IMG/VR virus record: IMGVR_UViG_2671180847_000011 | DNA from: a virus | Lineage: Duplodnaviria; Heunggongvirae; Uroviricota; Caudoviricetes | DNA length: 20,048 nucleotides | Direction: 5' to 3' (one strand) | Part shown: one piece after another, positions 2,965 to 9,514 of the stretch | Layout: every line of letters starts with the position of its first letter | Numbering within the stretch: position 1 is the stretch's first letter | Made by a program: the position numbers and the translations under genes | The notes under the pieces: model-generated | Database searches by the model: none | Told to the model about the DNA's origin: nothing | The model's input: the letters and a program-made list of their open reading frames with translations, nothing else

Positions 2965-3261
2965 TCAGTCATTACTGATAGCGCCATAGCGTGAGCGGTA
3001 ATTACGCAGGCGCGGGTCGATATATTCAGGGAAGTGGGTATATGTGGCTTTGCGGAATGGTCGGATTGATGTCTGGTAAATTCGCTCGCGTTCTTCTTTC
3101 TCTGCAAGCCATATACAGTGGCGAAATTCCTTTTCCTCTTTCGTTTCCTGCGGTAGCGACATTATCCGGTCGTAGTTTTTCCTGAATTTATCCAGCACCT
3201 CCGATACGGAATTGCCGGAACAGCGGCGTGGGTCATCCGCACCATACAGAGGCGCTGGCAT
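2965..3261 (-). CDS. Hypothetical early protein, 98 aa (position fits an anti-RecBCD Abc-like gene; unverified)
   Basis: ORF with AAGGA RBS 7 nt upstream of ATG 3261; sits immediately downstream of the erf-ssb recombination genes. Confidence 0.5.
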   Translation of the reverse strand: MPAPLYGADDPRRCSGNSVSEVLDKFRKNYDRIMSLPQETKEEKEFRHCIWLAEKEERERIYQTSIRPFRKATYTHFPEYIDPRLRNYRSRYGAISND

Positions 3262-3284: not shown

Positions 3285-3668
3285 TCAGAATGGGATGGAA
3301 TCGTCGTATACAGGAGTGTTCTGCTGGTTACTACTTTGCTGCTGCGGGCCATTTCCTGAAGCTGCAAATCCAATCTTTGCATTCAGTAATTCAAGAGTGA
3401 TTGATTGACCATTTTGCCCCTGATAAACATCAACCCTGATGTTTTCTCCGGTAATTTCCACAATGCCACCTTCAACAAGAACACTACGGTAGTAATCCGC
3501 TTGCGCTCCCGGCTTGGCAAATACAACGGCGCTGTAGTTTGTCCATTCTTTCTTTTTTGTCTGGCGATCGTAATACTGAACGCCAGCACGGATGTTGAAT
3601 CCGATATTTTCCCCGGCCTGAAACTCTCTTGCGGGCTTGTTTAGTCTTACAGTAATCGAATGTGCCAT
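3285..3668 (-). CDS. ssb: Single-stranded DNA-binding protein-like, 127 aa
   Basis: Gly/Gln-rich tail ending in the SSB acidic tip ...PVYDDSIPF; start ATG at 3668 shares a base with the erf stop (TAATG). The track ORF extends further (to 3758) but overlaps erf. Confidence 0.65.
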   Translation of the reverse strand: MAHSITVRLNKPAREFQAGENIGFNIRAGVQYYDRQTKKKEWTNYSAVVFAKPGAQADYYRSVLVEGGIVEITGENIRVDVYQGQNGQSITLELLNAKIGFAASGNGPQQQSSNQQNTPVYDDSIPF

Positions 3669-4273
3669 TAAGCAGCCGCTCCTTCTAATTCGTCTCGTCT
3701 GATGTTGTAAACGTCCTGCGCTTTGTGCTGCTCCGGTGTGCCTTCGAGCATCTTCCACGCTTTGGCGAACGCCTGTTTAAGCTCTTCTACGGTGTTTTTC
3801 TGCATTGCTGCGTCAGTGAATGCTTTTAGAACCTGTTCAGGTGTAGGTGATGGTTTTGATTGCTTTGCTGCTGCGTTCTGCTGATGTTTATGCTCGTTTG
3901 TATCTGCATCTTTCGCATCATCAATGCCGAACAAACCATTGAGGCAATACTTGCGTGCATAAGAGCTTGTGGCTCCAGTAACTTGTGCAGAATCCATTCC
4001 TTTCTTGCTTTCTTCCTCTCGTGCAAGAGCGGTTGCCGTATGACTGTTTTCGCCATCGGTAATAGTTGCCGTGGCTTTCACGTAATACCGATCACCAATC
4101 AACACAACTTCATCGCTGATTGATAAAAACAGGCCATTCAGTAACGGCTTAACGCCTTCAAGAATGTCTTCGCAGCTTCTGTATTTATATTTACCGAATG
4201 AGTTGTACTGATTCTTTGGCGCGTTCAGATTCTCCTGAATAGCTGCCAGTCTTGCGTAAAATTCTTTGCTCAT
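3668..4273 (-). CDS. erf: Erf-family single-strand annealing protein, about 201 aa
   Basis: MSKEFYARLAAIQENLNAPKNQYNSFGKYKYRSCEDILEGVKPLL...ARKYCLNGLFGIDD closely matches my memory of P22 Erf; start set at the ATG at 4273 rather than the upstream TTG used by the track. Confidence 0.8.
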   Translation of the reverse strand: MSKEFYARLAAIQENLNAPKNQYNSFGKYKYRSCEDILEGVKPLLNGLFLSISDEVVLIGDRYYVKATATITDGENSHTATALAREEESKKGMDSAQVTGATSSYARKYCLNGLFGIDDAKDADTNEHKHQQNAAAKQSKPSPTPEQVLKAFTDAAMQKNTVEELKQAFAKAWKMLEGTPEQHKAQDVYNIRRDELEGAAA

Positions 4274-4283
4274 ATGATTGTTC

Positions 4284-4454
4284 TCAGAACGGACACGGCC
4301 CAAGGAAATAACGCTGATTTAATACTTCAGTCTTTGCCGCATTTAAAAATACGCGAACACCTTCACGATCTCCCTTCTGGCGATACATTAACGCCTGCTG
4401 CGTGTACATGCGTCTCTGTAACTTGCTCTCCTTCACTGTGGTTGCAAGTGACAT
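4284..4454 (-). CDS. Small hypothetical protein, 56 aa
   Basis: My own translation (MSLATTVKESKLQRRMYTQQ...); ATG at 4454 is preceded by AGGAG at 6-nt spacing. Overlaps the next ORF (4363-4533) in another frame, so one of the two is doubtful. Confidence 0.3.
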   Translation of the reverse strand: MSLATTVKESKLQRRMYTQQALMYRQKGDREGVRVFLNAAKTEVLNQRYFLGPCPF

Positions 4455-4533
4455 GAATATCTCCTTCGTTACCGATTAATTCTTTCATCTGACGAATGAA
4501 TTCTTCGTCTGACCAGTTATCCGTAAAACTCAT
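4363..4533 (-). CDS. Small acidic hypothetical protein, 56 aa
   Basis: MSFTDNWSDEEFIRQMKELIGNEGDIH...; ATG at 4533 overlaps the stop of the upstream small gene (ATGA). The C-terminal half overlaps ORF 4284-4454. Confidence 0.3.
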   Translation of the reverse strand: MSFTDNWSDEEFIRQMKELIGNEGDIHVTCNHSEGEQVTETHVHAAGVNVSPEGRS

Positions 4534-4682
4534 TTCCTGCGATACCACGGAAGGTTGATAGCTGATTTCATCGCTTTATTTGCTTCAAGCCACATTTTTG
4601 AATCACCAATAAATCGGGCTATTACTGCTTTGTTCTGTGCAGCACGAAGCATCTGGTGATTGATGGCTATTTCATTGCGCAT
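4530..4682 (-). CDS. Small protein in the kil position, 50 aa
   Basis: My own translation (MRNEIAINHQMLRAAQNKAVIARFIGDSKMWLEANK...); GAGG RBS 7 nt upstream; directly downstream of cIII, where lambda carries kil. Family not verified. Confidence 0.4.
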   Translation of the reverse strand: MRNEIAINHQMLRAAQNKAVIARFIGDSKMWLEANKAMKSAINLPWYRRK

Positions 4683-4798
4683 AATAAGACCTCAAATCTT
4701 TTCCATCCGTCACGTAATTTACGGGTGATTCGTTCAAGTAAAGATTCATTTAATTGGAAGGCACCCATGCGAGCGCCTCCCGCGATTGCGTAAATCAT
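4667..4798 (-). CDS. cIII: CIII-like protein (FtsH inhibitor), 43 aa
   Basis: My own translation MIYAIAGGARMGAFQLNESLLERITRKLRDGWKRFEVLLCAMK contains the conserved CIII core ESLLERITRKLRDGWKR; AAGGAA RBS 6 nt upstream of ATG 4798. Confidence 0.7.
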   Translation of the reverse strand: MIYAIAGGARMGAFQLNESLLERITRKLRDGWKRFEVLLCAMK

Positions 4799-4822
4799 GG
4801 GTGGTTCCTTATGTTGGTTTTA

Positions 4823-5791
4823 TTAGTAGGTTATTTTTGTTGCGAATACTTCGCCTTTTACGATGGCTGTTATGATATTTTTAGCAACATCTTCTGATGC
4901 GCCAACCTTGATAAGGTCAGCAAGTATTTTGTTATTTACTTCTTTCCGGTGAGCTTTATCCTTTGCTCTACGCTCTTCTTCGTCCTTGATTCTTTTTTCT
5001 TCTGCTATTCTGGCTTGCTCTTTTGCTTCAGCCTCGCGCCGGATTCGTTCAGCCTCCTCCTGTGCTTTTCGGCGTTCTGCTTCAATTGCCGCCTGCTTTT
5101 CTCTTTCAGCTCGTTCTGCTGCCTCTTTTGCTTCGCGCTGTGCTCGTTGCTCGGCTTCAATGCGTTCACGCTCTGCACGTTCCGCTGCGGCCTTAGCTTC
5201 TGCTTCTCGCCTTGCTGCTGCTTCAATTTCGGCTTTTGCCTTTGCTTCGGCTTCAGATCTGGCTTTCTCTTCAGCTTCTCTTTTTAAGCGTTCTTCATGC
5301 TCTCGCTTTTCCTGCTCCGCTTTGAGTCTTGCCTCTTCTCTTTGGCGGTCAAATTCGCGATCCATCAAAATCGCTATTTCATGGTCAGACTCAATTTGCT
5401 TTGCGAGAGCTTCAGCTGCTGCCTTAGCTTCTTCTTCGGCTTTAATCCGCGCCTGCTCCTCCTCATAATCAGTAAGAGGCTGGCGCGCCTTGGCTTTCAG
5501 TTCATCAAGGCGATCACGCACTGTCTTGCGGTTGGCATCAATTAGCTTTGGAATTTCCTTAAGTTCAGCAACAAGGTCTTTGCCAAGACCATCGAGATAT
5601 GTTTTCGTCTGCGCAACTTTATACGCCAGAGAAGCGATCTCCTTTCTGCCCTTTGCCGTTGTGATATCAGGCACAAAGGACATAACTTCACGTTCAACCT
5701 TTTGAAGGATTTCTTCAATCTGGTCGGCAGACTGAAATACAGTCATTGCATTTGCTTTTTCAATAACAACTAAATCTGTTACTTCACTCAT
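4823..5791 (-). CDS. Hypothetical protein with a long E/A/K/R-rich repeat region, 322 aa
   Basis: Globular N- and C-terminal parts flank about 150 residues of EAKAKAEIEAAARREAEAK-type repeats; GGAGGA RBS immediately upstream of the ATG. Confidence 0.65.
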   Translation of the reverse strand: MSEVTDLVVIEKANAMTVFQSADQIEEILQKVEREVMSFVPDITTAKGRKEIASLAYKVAQTKTYLDGLGKDLVAELKEIPKLIDANRKTVRDRLDELKAKARQPLTDYEEEQARIKAEEEAKAAAEALAKQIESDHEIAILMDREFDRQREEARLKAEQEKREHEERLKREAEEKARSEAEAKAKAEIEAAARREAEAKAAAERAERERIEAEQRAQREAKEAAERAEREKQAAIEAERRKAQEEAERIRREAEAKEQARIAEEKRIKDEEERRAKDKAHRKEVNNKILADLIKVGASEDVAKNIITAIVKGEVFATKITY

Positions 5792-5803
5792 ATATCCTCC
5801 ATC

Positions 5804-5832
5804 AAAAAAATTGCCCTCACATTAGAGGGCAA
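5804..5832 (-). terminator. Rho-independent terminator inside the leftward operon
   Basis: Stem ttgccctc(5811-5818)/gagggcaa(5825-5832), loop acatta; on the minus strand it is followed by a T7 run (forward A-run 5804-5810). Lies 13 nt upstream of the 322-aa gene start. Confidence 0.55.
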
Positions 5833-5925
5833 AGAAGATTTCCAATAATCAGAACAAGTCGGCTCCTGTTTAGTTACGAGCGACATTGCTCCGTGTATTC
5901 ATTCCAACGAGTGAATACACAGTGC

Positions 5926-6114
5926 TTATTCGTCATGCATTTCAGGTAATTCTTCGTATTCGACTCCCCATACGTTTTTACACCAACTAACTCGCTCATA
6001 TCTTTTACAAAAATCAGACCACATAACTTGTGTTCCATCATGGTTTGTTATTACTTCTGTAATATCACCAACACTAACAAAACTGGTATTAGAAGCAGTT
6101 ATTTTTACTTTCAT
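5926..6114 (-). CDS. Small hypothetical protein, 62 aa
   Basis: Track ORF; start ATG shares a base with the stop of the 44-aa ORF upstream (TAATG). Confidence 0.45.
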   Translation of the reverse strand: MKVKITASNTSFVSVGDITEVITNHDGTQVMWSDFCKRYERVSWCKNVWGVEYEELPEMHDE

Positions 6115-6248
6115 TACTCACCTCCAAGAGCATTTGCAGCCTCTTTTGCTTTGTGAATCCATAGCAGAGCCATGTAGTACACAGCCTTTTCGTCGGCTCC
6201 TGTGATATCTTGCTCTGCCATCCATTTTGTAAATTCAACTGCGTTCAT
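6114..6248 (-). CDS. Small hypothetical protein, 44 aa
   Basis: My own translation (MNAVEFTKWMAEQDITGADEKAVYYMALLWIHKAKEAANALGGE); GAGGTGA RBS upstream of ATG 6248. Confidence 0.4.
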   Translation of the reverse strand: MNAVEFTKWMAEQDITGADEKAVYYMALLWIHKAKEAANALGGE

Positions 6249-6285
6249 ATTCACCTCTGTTGTTTATGCCAAAAATAAAGGCCGA

Positions 6286-6909
6286 CTATGCGACCTCGGA
6301 AGGAAGTCCAATCATCTTATTCAAATCTTCTACCCGTAAAGCAGGAAGTGCTGTACTTGCTTTATCTGCTTCTTTTGGTAGCAATTCTTTGCTTTCAGGC
6401 CAAACTTCAATAAGTCGCTTAACTGTTGTGACTGAGTTCAAAGCAGCCCATACATTTGATTCGATATCCTTTTTCTTGGCTTCAAGTTTTTGTTGCAATG
6501 CGCAGATTTCATCAAACCTTTTTGTTATTTCGTGTTCTGCGTCAAACATGCATTTATCTTTTTCTGGGGTGGGGAGCAATATATCTTCACCGTTGCCGTC
6601 TTTTCCGTATGAATGCCAGCCAACCCTTCTTCCAGATACAGTCAGATAAATCGAAGTAGAACGAACATCGCATGAGTAAAATGAACATCCCATCTTCTCA
6701 AGTTCTTCACTTATAGCTGCTAACTTGGATGATAACCGATCCACTTCCTCAGTTTTCTTTTTACCGCCAAACGCAATAACTCTGGCGTCAAGTGCAAGCT
6801 GGTTCTTTAACTTTGTTACTTCTTCAAGTTCAGTGAAAACCCCAGACTTAATTAAAGCGTTACGAGCGATTTCCTCTTTCATTCTCGTAGTTAAGCGGAT
6901 TGATGACAT
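6286..6909 (-). CDS. Hypothetical protein, about 207 aa
   Basis: Start set at the internal ATG at 6909 (MSSIRLTTRMKEE...), which has a GAGAGGAA RBS; the track ORF begins earlier at 6969. No recognisable family. Confidence 0.55.
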   Translation of the reverse strand: MSSIRLTTRMKEEIARNALIKSGVFTELEEVTKLKNQLALDARVIAFGGKKKTEEVDRLSSKLAAISEELEKMGCSFYSCDVRSTSIYLTVSGRRVGWHSYGKDGNGEDILLPTPEKDKCMFDAEHEITKRFDEICALQQKLEAKKKDIESNVWAALNSVTTVKRLIEVWPESKELLPKEADKASTALPALRVEDLNKMIGLPSEVA

Positions 6910-7022
6910 ATTAATTCCTCTCAAATAAGTGGTTTGCTGCCTAATTTCATTTTCTGGCGACCAACACAAGTCACCCCCATTTCACTGCGTGGCTTGCGGT
7001 AGTAAATTAGGTTTGTTCAGAC

Positions 7023-7045
7023 AATAAAAAACCCACCGAAGTGGG
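7023..7045 (-). terminator. Rho-independent terminator (tL1-like) after the N-proximal genes
   Basis: Stem cccac(7032-7036)/gtggg(7041-7045), loop cgaa; on the minus strand it is followed by TTTTTTATT. Directly abuts the stop of the 7046-7384 gene. Confidence 0.6.
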
Positions 7046-7384
7046 CTATGACCATTTTTTATTTGGATTTCGTTGGTGAGCGTGATTAACAACTCTGTGC
7101 ATTACATCCTCATATTTTTCATCTTCAATTTTTTCGACATCGCGAGGAAATGGTGTTGCTAATGCTTTGTCAACTTTGTCCATTGGTTCTTCATTAATCT
7201 TATATTCAGGGCCATCATCTATAGCATTAAATCCAGGTGTTACACCGTTTTTTAATGCATATGCTATCCTTTTTTCCCATCTCGCTATTCTCCTCCTGTC
7301 TCGAGATGTAAGACCTCTATCAGATACTTTTCTGTTTTGTCCGCGGTCAGGATTAACATAAATAGTCTTTTTCACCATAAGCAT
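7046..7384 (-). CDS. Hypothetical basic protein, about 113 aa
   Basis: ORF immediately downstream of N; start uncertain (ATG at 7384 or 7378; the track uses a TTG at 7390). Confidence 0.5.
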   Translation of the reverse strand: MLMVKKTIYVNPDRGQNRKVSDRGLTSRDRRRIARWEKRIAYALKNGVTPGFNAIDDGPEYKINEEPMDKVDKALATPFPRDVEKIEDEKYEDVMHRVVNHAHQRNPNKKWS

Positions 7385-7386
7385 AC

Positions 7387-7692
7387 TCAATAAGCACCGT
7401 ACGGTAGTTTACTGTACAATTTTATTTTTTGGACTGCATGTATTTTGTTTCCTAATGGGTTTGAATCTTTGTAATAAATACTTCTATTTTTTCGAACGAC
7501 TTCTTCTTTCTTCTTGCAGCAAAGGCTTCCTAGCGATGCCGCTTTGTCTGCTCTGACGCAACCAGAGAGCTTTAGCGCAATTTTTCTCGCCAGTGCTTCA
7601 TTACTGCGTCGCTCGGCAATAAGTTCTGCTCTGCGAGCTTTGTAGCGGCTTTTTGCCGTACCTTTGGATTCTTTCCAGACAATGGTTACCAT
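7387..7692 (-). CDS. N: N-type transcription antiterminator with phage-21-type arginine-rich motif
   Basis: Contains GTAKSRYKARRAELIAERR, matching the phage 21 N boxB-binding motif as I remember it; first gene after pL/nutL; start taken at MVTIVWKESK (ATG 7692). Confidence 0.75.
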   Translation of the reverse strand: MVTIVWKESKGTAKSRYKARRAELIAERRSNEALARKIALKLSGCVRADKAASLGSLCCKKKEEVVRKNRSIYYKDSNPLGNKIHAVQKIKLYSKLPYGAY

Positions 7693-7802
7693 GATGGTCT
7701 CCTTTAAGTGGCTTTGGCGCATGACGCGTCGAGGTGCTTATCTTCTCGATCGCTGTCTTGCAGCTGCAATTCGCGCCATCCCCAAAACCACTCAAGTTCT
7801 GG

Positions 7803-7842
7803 TCTCAACGGTTAGGTTGAGAGTCCGTCGATGTTAAAGAGC
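7803..7842 (-). promoter_or_regulatory. nutL (boxA plus boxB)
   Basis: Minus strand reads GCTCTTTAACA (boxA, 7832-7842), then after 9 nt the hairpin tctcaac-ctaacc-gttgaga (boxB, 7803-7822). The same boxA sequence recurs at nutR. Confidence 0.7.
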
Positions 7843-7888
7843 CTGCCAATCTGTTCCGTTTGGCTTCCAGCGTCCTGCTGATGGCTTA

Positions 7889-7917
7889 AATTTAAGACTT
7901 CTTAATTTATTGGTCAA
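7889..7917 (-). promoter_or_regulatory. pL promoter with OL operators
   Basis: Minus strand -35 TTGACC (7912-7917), about 16-17 nt spacer, -10 TTAAAT/TAAATT (about 7889-7895). Operator-like palindrome ATTTAAGACTTCTTAATT at 7890-7907 lies between the -35 and -10; a second partial copy sits upstream near 7925-7945. Confidence 0.5.
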
Positions 7918-7980
7918 GTGCATTTTTGAAGAAAACTTAATTTTATGGGCGTGAATTTAGTTTGTCTTTGATTTTTAACG

Positions 7981-8008
7981 GGAAATAAAAAAGGGGCGAA
8001 AGCCCCTT
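7981..8008 (-). terminator. Rho-independent terminator immediately after the repressor gene
   Basis: Stem aaggggc(7991-7997)/gcccctt(8002-8008), loop gaaa; on the minus strand followed by TTTTTTTATTT. Overlaps the repressor stop codon. Confidence 0.65.
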
Positions 8009-8657
8009 AAGGAAGGTTTGCTAGCTTGGCATCAACGACAACGCCAATGATTTTACAGTTCCCATTGATTTCAATCATTGGGTATTGTGGATTGAGTGGT
8101 TTCAGGAATTTTCTACCGGCATCAATAACTAACTTTTTGAATGTCGCCTCGTTTTCTCCTTCAAGTTTGGCGACTACCAACTTTCCATTACGTGGTTCGA
8201 CTTCTGGGTCGACGAGAATAATCATCCCCTCAGGAATACTCAGTCCTGCCGGGGCAGTCATTGAATCGCCTTTAACGTCGAGCCAAAAAGAGTCTTCAGA
8301 ACAATCTACCGTTGTGTCGTACCAGTTATCTATTGCACGCCTATGATATGGCTCTACAGCTTCCATCCAACATCCTGCGCTTACCCAACTAATTAGAGGA
8401 TACGAACCTCTTGGATCATGCCTGCTGTGATAGGCAATGTTTGAAAGACTATCCTCTCCTTTCAACAGGTAATCAGGGGAGCACTGCAAAGCCTTGGCTA
8501 AGGCCAATAGGTTTTCGCCATTGGGCTCAGTTTCAGATCGCTCCCATTGGGAAATAGCAACATTAGACACGCCAACCATCTTGCCAAGGGCAGCCTGCCT
8601 AATCTTGAGTTCTTTTCTGCGAGCGCGAATACGCTCACCCATCAGTTGTGTATTCAT
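8007..8657 (-). CDS. c2: CI-type repressor (P22 C2-like; HTH plus LexA-like S24 autopeptidase), 216 aa
   Basis: N-terminal XRE-type helix-turn-helix (QAALGKMVGVSNVAISQWER); C-terminal domain with an Ala-Gly site (VSAGCW), Ser (GDSM) and Lys (KLVVAKL). Matches P22 C2 over its length as I remember it. Confidence 0.9.
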   Translation of the reverse strand: MNTQLMGERIRARRKELKIRQAALGKMVGVSNVAISQWERSETEPNGENLLALAKALQCSPDYLLKGEDSLSNIAYHSRHDPRGSYPLISWVSAGCWMEAVEPYHRRAIDNWYDTTVDCSEDSFWLDVKGDSMTAPAGLSIPEGMIILVDPEVEPRNGKLVVAKLEGENEATFKKLVIDAGRKFLKPLNPQYPMIEINGNCKIIGVVVDAKLANLP

Positions 8658-8737
8658 AGTTAAGACATCTTAAATAAACTTGACTTAAGATTCCTTTGGT
8701 GGATAATTTAAGTGTTCTTTAATTTCGGAGCGAGTCT
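8658..8737 (+). promoter_or_regulatory. OR operators with pR (and divergent pRM)
   Basis: pR -35 TTGACT (8690-8695), 16-nt spacer, -10 GATAAT (8712-8717), GGAG RBS before cro. P22-type operator palindromes: AGTTAAGACATCTTAAAT (8658-8675) and ATTTAAGTGTTCTTTAAT (8715-8732, overlapping the -10 and start site). Confidence 0.55.
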
Positions 8738-8923
8738 ATGTACAAAAAAGATGTTATTGACCACTTCGGAACCCAGCGTGCTGTTGCTAAAGCACTAGGC
8801 ATTAGCGATGCAGCAGTCTCTCAGTGGAAAGAAGTTATCCCAGAGAAAGACGCCTATCGATTGGAAATCGTTACAGCTGGCGCCCTGAAGTATCAAGAAA
8901 GTGCTTACCGCCAAGCGGCATAA
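8738..8923 (+). CDS. cro: Cro repressor (P22 Cro-like), 61 aa
   Basis: MYKKDVIDHFGTQRAVAKALGISDAAVSQWKEV... is a small HTH protein divergent from the repressor gene; near-identical to P22 Cro from memory. Confidence 0.85.
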   Translation: MYKKDVIDHFGTQRAVAKALGISDAAVSQWKEVIPEKDAYRLEIVTAGALKYQESAYRQAA

Positions 8924-8930
8924 GCAAATT

Positions 8931-8970
8931 GCTCTTTAACAGTTCTGGCCTTTCACCTCTAACCGGGTGA
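8931..8970 (+). promoter_or_regulatory. nutR (boxA plus boxB)
   Basis: GCTCTTTAACA (8931-8941) followed by the hairpin tcacc-tctaaccg-ggtga (8953-8970); same boxA as nutL and a shared CTAACC loop motif. Confidence 0.7.
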
Positions 8971-9038
8971 GCAAACATCAGCGGCAAATCCATTGGGTGT
9001 GCCGCTATAACTCAATATCAATATAGGAAAATTAACAA

Positions 9039-9335
9039 ATGGCACAAGCAAGCTACAGCAAGCCAACACAGCGAGAAATTGATCGCGCTGAAACTGATTT
9101 ACTCATCAACCTGTCAACGCTTACCCAGCGCGGTCTGGCAAAGATGATTGGCTGTCATGAATCGAAGATAAGCAGAACGGACTGGAGATTTATTGCTTCG
9201 GTCTTGTGTGCTTTCGGAATGGCATCAGACATCAGTCCGATTAGCAGGGCTTTTAAGTATGCGCTTGATGAAATCACAAAGAAAAAATCCCCGGCCGCCA
9301 CCGAGGATTTTAAGCAAATTGATATGCAATTCTGA
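9039..9335 (+). CDS. cII: CII-like transcriptional activator (P22 C1-like), 98 aa
   Basis: Homologous to lambda CII in my recollection, including the C-terminal [18 protein letters not shown] (lambda: KKRPAATERSEQIQMEF); sits after cro/nutR. Confidence 0.8.
9048..9061 (-). promoter_or_regulatory. CII-binding direct repeat TTGC-N6-TTGC (pRE-like)
   Basis: Minus strand reads TTGCtgtagcTTGC inside the 5' end of cII, the same location and orientation as lambda pRE. Confidence 0.45.
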
Positions 9336-9367
9336 GGGAATTACTGGATCAATCCACAGGAGTAATT

Positions 9368-9514
9368 ATGACAAAACAACTCAGTCCTTACCAGGACAAA
9401 ATTCACAAACACATACTACGTGATCGCTTCCTGTCCAGCTTCAAGCAGCCTGGTCGATTCCGGGCTGAGTTGGAAAAAGTGAAGCTGATGCAGAAGGAGA
9501 AAGGTCATGAGTAA
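9368..9514 (+). CDS. Small ORF between cII and O, 48 aa (position matches P22 orf48)
   Basis: My own translation ([48 protein letters not shown]); AGGAG RBS 5-6 nt upstream; its 3' end overlaps the O start. Confidence 0.45.

Follow-up and report, generated by a model that had tools for sequence, protein, structure and literature searches.

Gene content of the interval

Three open reading frames, encoding 207, 44 and 62 amino acids, occupy the minus strand of the interval 5804–7045 of the window, by which we mean the whole stretch of 20,048 nucleotides that was analysed (Table 1). The largest is taken to start at the ATG at 6909, with the sequence GAGAGG 7 nt 5′ of it; a program-made list of open reading frames had lengthened it to a TTG at 6969. 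The 44-residue frame is also counted from its ATG, where the same list starts at a GTG at 6254. Its TAA stop codon (6116–6114) and the ATG of the 62-residue frame (6114–6112) have one base in common, and GGAGGTGAG lies shortly 5′ of this TAATG overlap. The three frames are genuine genes and not chance reading frames, since they are supported by the Pfam match of the largest product, by PHROG matches of all three, and by RefSeq, which calls the identical three coding sequences in a prophage with 100% identity. An annotated E. coli genome contains the exact 984-bp block of three genes, again with 100% identity. An initial sequence-only reading of this DNA was correct about the three minus-strand genes, the coupling of the two small ones, and the U-run hairpins at both ends of the interval. 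We refer to the products as Nmad5, p44 and p62.

Table 1. Features of the interval 5804–7045 and of the surrounding leftward operon, in the direction of transcription.
Feature	Position	Strand	Details
pL-like promoter	7889–7917	-	TTGACC, 17 nt, TAAATT; consensus scan, 9/12 matches
nutL-like site	7803–7842	-	letters read directly from the sequence
N-type antiterminator gene	7387–7722	-	phrog_271, E 1e-31; weak Pfam N_peptide match
Nun-like transcription termination factor gene	7046–7390	-	phrog_5632, E 9e-71, full length; Nun-like in the mEp235 annotation
Intrinsic terminator, upstream boundary	7023–7047	-	stem 7047–7030, then UUUUUUAUU; -10.3 kcal/mol, z -3.2
3′ remnant of a lambda-type N gene	6921–7004	-	translation ends in YYRKPRSEMGVTCVGRQKMKLGSKPLI; cut off by an in-frame stop
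Nmad5-family gene (207 aa)	6286–6909	-	Pfam PF18757; phrog_1965, E 2.6e-83; RefSeq name
Weak hairpin over the Nmad5 stop codon	6278–6297	-	followed by UUUAUUUUU; -8.3 kcal/mol, z -1.3, not significant
p44, acidic small gene (44 aa)	6114–6248	-	phrog_24660, E 3.8e-35; pI 4.9
p62, acidic small gene (62 aa)	5926–6114	-	phrog_10407, E 2.9e-46; start overlaps the p44 stop
Strong hairpin without U-tract	5888–5925	-	-17.6 kcal/mol, z -5.6; directly 3′ of p62
Intrinsic terminator, downstream boundary	5804–5832	-	stem 5832–5811, then UUUUUUU; -14.5 kcal/mol, z -4.9
cc322, coiled-coil gene (322 aa)	4823–5791	-	phrog_1376; first gene of the conserved part of the operon
cIII	4667–4798		Pfam Lambda_CIII
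kil	4530–4682		Pfam Lambda_Kil
erf	3668–4303		Pfam ERF
abc2	2965–3261		Pfam Anti-RecBCD_p2

Operon context and boundaries

The pL-like promoter, which adjoins a cI-type repressor gene and its terminator on the downstream side, would, judging from its sequence, drive the entire leftward operon. The next element combines a boxA-like GCTCTTTAACA (7842–7832) with a boxB-like hairpin, TCTCAAC-CTAACC-GTTGAGA (7822–7803), which we infer to be nutL. mEp235 has repressor, N and Nun proteins with 100% identity to those of the window, and its annotation includes a nut boxA in the corresponding region. The longest frame of the N-type gene encodes 111 residues (101 in the mEp235 annotation), and the Nun-like gene (112 or 114 residues) is the 113-residue neighbor that the first reading had placed beside N. 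The proposed position of the three genes, after N and this neighbor in an early-left operon, is upheld.

The upstream terminator directly follows the stop codon of the Nun-like gene. In several relatives it travels with that gene, whose end lies 140 nt before Nmad5; at loci where Nmad5 follows an intact N gene, the terminator is absent and only 11 nt separate the N stop codon from the Nmad5 start. On this sequence comparison, the terminator is the Nun-like gene's own. Between it and Nmad5 lie ~85 nt that correspond to the last ~28 codons of a foreign N allele and carry the ribosome-binding site of Nmad5; in two related loci the same DNA forms the end of an intact N reading frame. The position of this remnant right behind the Nun terminator marks a recombination joint.

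The downstream terminator is part of a conserved linker that is present with or without cargo, as seen in two relatives. Both boundary terminators have at least six U after the stem, and the 4.5-kb region contains 12 terminator-like sites, compared to 5.3 ± 2.5 in shuffled sequences. Of the two remaining hairpins, neither of which the first reading mentions, the weak, terminator-like one is the 3′ linker of the Nmad5 module and is kept in four related loci, and the strong one forms the right edge of the variable slot. The center of the latter is inverted here, the element being carried with the opposite loop orientation by 70 related loci. An Rfam scan of 4500–9500 at E values up to 1 gave no relevant match, so no catalogued RNA accounts for this conserved hairpin.

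The three genes are not inherited as a unit

Comparison of gene content at this slot across related prophages shows that the three genes do not travel together. Among 80 close IMG/VR loci, defined by an Nmad5 at 94% identity or more, p44 and p62 follow Nmad5 in one, and p62 alone follows it in one other. Of the complete E. coli genomes surveyed, 5426 in all, 211 have the Nmad5 gene, 27 have the p44–p62 pair, and two have all three genes, contiguous and unbroken. Larger BLAST counts have a different meaning: a count of 2248 genomes stems from the conserved flanking linkers and not from the prevalence of Nmad5, and a count of 513 genomes is likewise inflated, probably via short linker matches. 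Downstream of Nmad5 we find ~40 different three-gene arrangements, with cIII or cc322 directly next in about one-third of the loci. Strains E-93 and UMNK88 carry the pair in the absence of Nmad5, and p62 itself is more often coupled to another upstream gene than to p44, the alignment showing the same GGAG-TGAGTAATG junction in either case. In the alignment, p44–p62 appears as a clean insertion between conserved linkers.

The slot around them is variable, as had been suspected at the outset. A prophage with essentially the same repressor/N/Nun region holds genes of phrog_2471, phrog_1273 and phrog_6949 there, and relatives with the same flanks hold other small genes to which no function is assigned. 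The interval is very probably a mosaic of separate pieces and not one unit, and the idea of a three-gene cassette is abandoned on these counts. Its description as terminator-bounded holds for the terminators themselves and fails for the insulation that they seemed to provide, as the upstream one belongs to the Nun-like gene and a piece of N intervenes; the terminator-bounded look reflects mosaic history. A variable slot between N and cIII, filled by mosaic lambdoid exchange, is an ordinary and already known arrangement.

Proposed expression of the interval

We propose that the interval belongs to a lambdoid prophage of the P22/HK620 type and is a section of its early-left (pL) operon, which N would antiterminate. 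Recombination would have brought two independently mobile accessory modules together there, in the variable slot that separates N/Nun from the conserved cc322-cIII-kil-erf-abc2 block. The first module would consist of the Nmad5 gene with the final ~28 codons of its usual upstream neighbor, a lambda-type N gene, and the second of the small acidic pair p44 and p62. Transcripts would start at pL, acquire the N modification at nutL and read through the terminators at 7030–7047 and 5811–5832. A consensus scan at a strict threshold, which does not reach weak or non-sigma-70 promoters, detected no sigma-70-like promoter on the coding strand within 5804–7045. With a start at pL, N-dependent read-through and no promoter of their own, the three genes would be delayed-early lytic genes, silent in the repressed prophage. 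Both the read-through and the silence in the lysogen are modeled on the biology of lambda. The genes probably serve N-dependent lytic growth and not prophage defence. The explanation as a whole, including the functions discussed below, is one that we favor with moderate confidence.

The first reading had instead seen a candidate accessory or defence module between terminators; in its full form, this would be a self-contained, terminator-insulated set of three genes that the prophage expresses to protect its host by defence or superinfection exclusion. Terminators do flank the interval, and lambda carries sieB, and rexAB in the neighboring immunity region, near the corresponding position. Additionally, “NMAD” domains of unspecified type occur together with nucleotide-modifying enzymes in E. 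coli defence systems, both predicted and validated (PMC13092281). We nevertheless regard such a module as highly improbable. The genes are not inherited together, the scan of the interval offers no promoter-like site on their strand, and the upstream terminator is that of the Nun-like gene and stands beside a recombination scar. No model of PADLOC-DB 2.0 matches any of the three proteins or Nun at E values up to 1, the sole match being a chance-level one of LmuB (E 0.026) to the neighboring coiled-coil protein. Furthermore, relatives of Nmad5 are found in virulent N4-like, M6-like and Dhillonvirus phages, and relatives of p62 in virulent Krischvirus phages; in such strictly virulent phages a role in prophage defence is impossible. 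The proposed role in defence or exclusion is thus left without support from the PADLOC scan, the promoter scan or the homologues.

The Nmad5 protein

The proposal that none of the three proteins matches a recognizable family fails for the largest and holds, as far as Pfam is concerned, for p44 and p62. The 207-residue protein matches Pfam PF18757 (“Nucleotide modification associated domain 5”) over its full length, residues 4–203 aligning with positions 1–206 of the 206-position profile (240.3 bits against a cut-off of 27, E 2.7e-71), and RefSeq names it “Nmad5 family putative nucleotide modification protein”. The Nmad domains were reportedly named in a paper of 2013. At E 0.001 or better the family comprises 2293 cluster representatives, and the protein of the window belongs to its class of ~200-residue stand-alone members.

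In an alignment of 64 sequences that extends to members with 25% identity, Trp170, Pro171, Glu172, Leu176, Pro178, Leu196, Asn197 and Gly201 are invariant or nearly so. They lie in a conserved C-terminal segment of the family (WPE..EL.P ... LPA...DLN..IGLP), and residues 162–201 hold eight of the 15 invariant or near-invariant positions. The AlphaFold2 model has a mean pLDDT of 84.8, with values below 56 for residues 183–207; from this one model, the last 25 residues of the segment are predicted to be disordered. The pI is near neutral (6.2), and nothing in it points to direct DNA binding.

Several searches address a possible enzymatic activity. A profile search against the sequences of solved structures returned coiled-coil noise at E 0.3 or worse, and Foldseek comparison with viral models gave significant matches essentially only to other Nmad5-family or unannotated phage proteins. 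We read no conserved acidic/histidine or nucleotide-binding pattern in the near-invariant positions of the alignments. An NCBIfam scan of the three proteins gave no match, none of the papers searched cites PF18757, and the terms searched in a paper on a phage accessory-gene screen (PMC12373910) returned nothing on this locus.

The family name invites the view that Nmad5 takes part in a pathway of DNA base modification that shields phage DNA from restriction. In M6-like phages such as SN1, Nmad5 does lie inside a thymidine hypermodification cluster whose members include aGPT-Pplase, nucleotide kinase, radical-SAM and PLP enzymes (PMC9476957), and in N4-like phages it adjoins ThyX. In contrast, the left operon of the window lacks a hydroxymethylase, aGPT-Pplase, 5-hmdU kinase, glycosyltransferase or thymidylate synthase, its protein matches being just N, Nun, cIII, Kil, ERF, Abc2, Ead/Ea22 and DUF551. 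For a closely related prophage, the annotation of the right arm lists none of these enzymes either; it gives replication, nin and lysis genes. Across 27 distant, non-redundant contexts of the family, the tallies of the top 25 neighboring families contain no dedicated hypermodification enzyme, but do include one Thy1 thymidylate synthase and one MT-A70 methyltransferase. Moreover, Nmad5 shows neither a catalytic signature nor a solved or predicted enzyme fold. As partner enzymes are missing here, we consider participation of this Nmad5 in base modification very unlikely. The name records an association in some phages, with the activity putative, and probably misleads for the many phages without modification enzymes.

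DNA-metabolism adaptor or counter-defence

We tentatively propose that Nmad5 is a non-essential, non-enzymatic helical adaptor in phage DNA replication or recombination, which would dock on a partner via its conserved C-terminal segment. In the 27 contexts, the dominant neighbors of distant Nmad5 genes are DUF2800 and other PD-(D/E)XK nucleases, the Enc34-type ssDNA-binding protein, AAA_24 (Sak4-type ATPase domain), DNA polymerase A, and primases/helicases. The order DUF2800, ssDNA-binding protein, Nmad5, polymerase A recurs, and N4-like phages have the order polymerase A, ThyX, Nmad5, exonuclease, primase, Sak4, SSB. A scan of a genome collection for distant Nmad5 loci yielded at least 10, all in Enterobacterales. 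The association may be a mere early-gene effect, as early regions are rich in such genes. A lone Nmad5-domain gene on the opposite strand among the head genes of Dhillonvirus phages also does not fit a replication-module role. Deletion of that gene leaves the phage viable (PMC11846954), in line with a non-essential role.

Neither p44 nor p62 matches a Pfam-A family at E values up to 1. For p44 we find 17 relatives, mostly from E. coli, with one named Cronobacter. Homologues of p62 with 57–61% identity occur in virulent Krischvirus phages, in Salmonella 9NA and SP069, and in an Aeromonas phage. The predicted model of p62 (pLDDT 89) is a small β-barrel with one helix. Under the explanation that we favor, both would be small accessory proteins of the lytic cycle that serve host take-over or counter-defence.

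A broader alternative is that the interval is counter-defence cargo as such, with at least one of the proteins inhibiting host immunity during lytic growth and some perhaps being sensed by other defences. The variable slot right after N, with its alternative small genes, would suit such cargo, as would the dispensability and patchy distribution of the three genes, the small size and acidity of p44 and p62, and the location of the p62 relatives of virulent RB49-type phages inside a cluster of small hypothetical genes. One missense change in the Dhillonvirus nmad5 gene (K296E or K216E) allows escape from Tmn, and the gene is apparently toxic to clone (PMC11846954). However, deletion of the same gene left sensitivity to Tmn unchanged (PMC11846954), so that the wild-type protein does not clearly act as a trigger or as an inhibitor. 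The Dhillonvirus protein is, moreover, homologous to the Nmad5 of the window over the C-terminal half only, and no Pfam match links the three proteins to Ral or other named anti-restriction families. We regard this alternative as rather unlikely.

A more specific version combines the two lines. The slot between N and cIII would be an anti-defence island, in which the disordered motif of Nmad5 docks on a conserved host protein of DNA metabolism or immunity; such docking would explain how a single missense change in a relative can defeat Tmn. In the same scheme p62 would be structurally related, at a distance, to Gp54 of phage Bas11, a protein that inhibits one host defence and that a CapRel-type sensor can in turn detect. 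We consider this version unlikely. If it were true, lambdoid prophages would offer tractable genetics toward a first function for Nmad5, a family of more than 2000 cluster representatives.

As a discovery the locus is of little value: Pfam and RefSeq already name the family of its largest gene, an annotated genome already contains the exact block, and the arrangement arose as a by-product of mosaic exchange, which is well known from lambdoid early regions. Its interest lies in providing a copy of a large phage family of putative activity in a dispensable and easily engineered position. The conserved C-terminal motif, predicted to be disordered, is a concrete handle toward a partner, and p62, whose predicted fold weakly matches that of a known CapRel trigger, offers an inexpensive lead.

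Comparison with known systems

The content between N and cIII in lambda, the ral/sieB region, is variable, dispensable and read through by the N-modified polymerase. The interval described here appears analogous, lying after N and before cIII, with content that would likewise be variable, dispensable and transcribed by read-through. Ral acts against host immunity in this slot of lambda. Membership of the Ral or SieB families finds no support in Pfam, in a release assumed to include both models, where the 207-residue protein matches significantly only Nmad5 and the small proteins match nothing. Lambda sieB has its own promoter, unlike the genes of this interval, where none was detected.

With the Pfam Nmad5 family, the protein shares the end-to-end profile match, the ~200-residue length class and the C-terminal motif. 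Its setting differs, as no modification enzymes lie nearby and the gene precedes the recombination genes in the pL operon of a lambdoid prophage.

The Dhillonvirus Nmad5-domain proteins (PhiSMS22 CDS6 and PhiSMA8 CDS7) are homologous over residues ~103–203 with 31–35% identity, and the gene is non-essential (PMC11846954), as proposed for Nmad5 of the window. In contrast, they are longer, with an unrelated N-terminal part, and are encoded by a lone opposite-strand gene among head genes; the connection to Tmn concerns a gain-of-function missense allele and not the wild-type protein.

Gp54 of Bas11 (PDB 9AXB), a direct trigger of CapRelSJ46, is a weak fold match to the predicted model of p62, with a sixth strand where the model has a helix, and hhalign detects no sequence similarity between the two. 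Finally, the Nmad5 proteins of the Enc34-like and N4-like replication modules belong to the same family (27–40% identity) and are likewise products of early genes amid genes of DNA metabolism. Those genes have an ssDNA-binding protein or ThyX on one side and a DNA polymerase or exonuclease on the other, whereas Nmad5 of the window lies between antiterminator genes and cIII/kil/erf.

Gene content and setting of the interval

The window corresponds to the early region of an E. coli prophage of lambdoid type (P22/HK620/mEp235-like). Its repressor, N and Nun each share 100% identity with their counterparts in phage mEp235. The interval under study belongs to a leftward operon, to which cro and cII are oriented oppositely. 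Downstream, the 322-aa coiled-coil protein is highly charged, with EAEAKAK-type repeats, and matches no Pfam family at E up to 1; its database labels, "TolA" or "Smchd1", are probably due to low-complexity composition. In many relatives, too, its gene comes after the slot. Between the repressor and N lies a further variable slot, which is empty in the window; E. coli UMNK88 (locus L166, 4957-5958) has an "SDH family Clp fold serine proteinase" there, and strain 20AR0354 a hypothetical gene of 103 aa.

Features in and around the interval
Feature	Position	Strand	Remarks
cI-type repressor	8007-8657	minus	LexA-family; own terminator
pL-like promoter	7917-7889	minus	
boxA-like GCTCTTTAACA and boxB-like hairpin	7842-7803	minus	
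N-type antiterminator	7387-7722	minus	
Nun-like termination factor	7046-7390	minus	
Interval under study	5804-7045	minus	between Nun-like gene and coiled-coil gene
N-gene 3' stub	6921-7004		between Nun terminator and Nmad5; about 85 nt translating to ...YYRKPRSEMGVTCVGRQKMKLGSKPLI*; 28 codons after in-frame stop
Nmad5	6286-6909	minus	207 aa
p44	6114-6248	minus	44 aa
p62	5926-6114	minus	62 aa
Hairpin	5893-5920		28 nt, just 3' of p62
Coiled-coil gene	4823-5791	minus	322 aa; followed by cIII, kil, erf, abc2

The three ORFs, the TAATG overlap and the two terminators described in the sequence-only reading are each found in the window. Profile matches, RefSeq calls in a 100%-identical prophage and diverged homologues support the ORFs as genes. 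The reading had placed none of the proteins in a recognised family, which does not hold for the 207-aa protein: this main gene already belongs to a named family, with a full-length match to Pfam PF18757, "Nucleotide modification associated domain 5" (240 bits, cut-off 27), and the same Nmad5 name in RefSeq. The two small proteins, p44 and p62, fall into PHROG families 24660 and 10407, respectively, and none of the three matched an NCBIfam model. When 1.84 billion cluster representatives were searched with a profile, 2293 matched Nmad5 at E ≤0.001, and almost all of the best 150 are stand-alone proteins of ~200 aa. In many Stx2a-converting phage records (e.g. LC616058.1, 11132-11653), the Nmad5 match begins only at residue 34, at two places per record, which suggests that the N-terminus is diverged or disrupted in this lineage.

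Inheritance of the three genes

The proposed three-gene cassette is contradicted by the distribution of its members, which are not inherited together. Among 80 viral-contig loci chosen for an Nmad5 at least 94% identical, p44 and p62 follow Nmad5 in one (L004), and p62 alone does so in one (L034). Downstream of Nmad5 there are about 40 different three-gene arrangements, with cIII or the coiled-coil gene immediately next in roughly one third of the loci. The Nmad5 gene is present in 211 of 5426 complete E. coli genomes, the p44-p62 pair in 27 (p62 without p44 is commoner) and the unbroken block in two. Without Nmad5, the pair lies directly after N in strain E-93 and after an unrelated 156-aa gene in UMNK88. 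Alignment shows the pair as a clean insertion with conserved linker on either side. The idea of a variable slot after N is borne out, as a prophage with essentially the same repressor-N-Nun region holds three other small genes there. The TAATG overlap is present but is no argument for a p44-p62 partnership, since p62 retains its ribosome-binding site and this junction when a different gene lies upstream.

Likewise, both terminators exist but do not delimit a cassette. The upstream one belongs to the Nun-like gene, and the downstream one, together with the preceding hairpin, is part of a linker conserved with or without cargo. Parts of the 1.4-kb interval are matched in 2248 genomes, ten times the number of Nmad5 carriers, which we attribute to the conserved flanking linkers. 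In two related loci (L007 and L003) and in E. coli 20AR0354, the DNA of the stub upstream of Nmad5 forms the 3' end of a complete N gene of the lambda type; in L007 and 20AR0354, the N stop codon is 11 nt before the Nmad5 start. Thus, Nmad5 normally follows N without a terminator. The stub marks the joint of two early-region modules, at which Nmad5, with the remnant of that N gene, was placed behind a different N-Nun module.

The coding strand of the 28-nt hairpin reads GTGTATTCA-CTCGTTGGAA-TGAATACAC. Its centre is the exact reverse complement in 70 related loci (TTCCAACGAG or a one-base variant), indicating an in-place inversion of a quasi-palindrome in the window, by which a U-G pair in the RNA stem becomes a C-A mismatch.

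Possible roles of the proteins

The name Nmad5 derives from where the gene lies in M6-like phages, namely in thymidine-hypermodification clusters (PMC9476957). No thymidine-hypermodification enzymes were detected by Pfam in the left operon of the window or are annotated in the right arm of a closely related prophage. In 27 non-redundant contexts of distant relatives (27-40% identity), the main neighbours are DUF2800 and other PD-(D/E)XK nucleases, an Enc34-type ssDNA-binding protein, AAA_24 (Sak4-type) ATPases, DNA polymerase A, primases and helicases, with a recurrent order of nuclease, ssDNA-binding protein, Nmad5 and polymerase. N4-like phages have the order polymerase, ThyX, Nmad5, exonuclease, primase, Sak4 and SSB. 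A large group of related loci (L084-L136 generally, e.g. L095 5173-10771; including Xenorhabdus, Limnobaculum and Izhakiella genomes) shares a conserved order: a protein of ~300 aa, DUF2800 nuclease (~433 aa), Enc34-type ssDNA-binding protein (~182 aa), Nmad5 (~212 aa) and DNA polymerase A (~700 aa).

In its AlphaFold2 model (pLDDT 84.8), Nmad5 folds into a bundle of helices with a small β-meander and one long helix. No relative was found among solved structures, and significant matches in a viral structure library are almost without exception further Nmad5-family members or phage proteins that carry no annotation. In the alignments, the conserved residues form no constellation that looks catalytic. 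They are concentrated towards the C-terminus (segment 162-203), and disorder is predicted for the last 25 residues of this segment, a pattern typical of a docking motif. Based on the neighbours, the lack of a catalytic pattern and this tail, we favor, with modest confidence, the view that Nmad5 is a non-enzymatic adaptor with a link to phage DNA metabolism. A caveat comes from Dhillonvirus, in which the homologous domain is encoded singly, on the opposite strand, amid head genes. An accessory or counter-defence role fits at least as well: it suits this location, as well as the dispensability of Dhillonvirus nmad5 and its missense allele, which escapes Tmn defence while the deletion does not (PMC11846954).

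Both p44 and p62 are acidic. Relatives of p62 (57-61% identity) occur in virulent RB49-type (Krischvirus) phages, where they make up the C-terminal portion of a 119-aa protein (RB49p076 in RB49, L170 2312-2671) whose gene belongs to a cluster of small hypothetical genes; this small lambdoid prophage gene is thus shared with T-even-like phages. The p62 model (pLDDT 89) is a small β-barrel with one helix. Its apparent likeness to Gp54 of phage Bas11 (PDB 9AXB), a direct trigger of CapRelSJ46, is only a lead, and hhalign detected no sequence similarity between the two.

The suggestion of a defence module is not upheld: none of the three proteins matched a PADLOC model, and homologues of Nmad5 and p62 occur in strictly virulent phages. 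The latter leads us to argue, from sequence comparison, for a probable lytic-cycle role rather than prophage-borne defence.

Expression and comparison with lambdoid phages

Within the interval, a consensus promoter scan identified no σ70-like site on the coding strand. Given that pL, a nut-like site and N all lie upstream, the lambda scheme is the simplest model: by analogy, N-modified polymerase would read through both terminators, and Nmad5, p44 and p62 would consequently be delayed-early lytic genes.

An N-type antiterminator and, directly 3' of it, a full-length Nun-like termination factor are present in one phage (7046-7722). The Nun-like factor matches phrog_5632 over its full length (E 9e-71), and its arginine-rich N-terminal stretch, SRDRRRIARWEKRIAYALKNG, resembles the RNA-binding motif of HK022 Nun. 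Since Nun is known to exclude lambda, this gene, just outside the interval, may be the one actually responsible for exclusion in the region. Overall, the original observation is confirmed and its interpretation partly supported; the arrangement of the interval is ordinary for a lambdoid early region.
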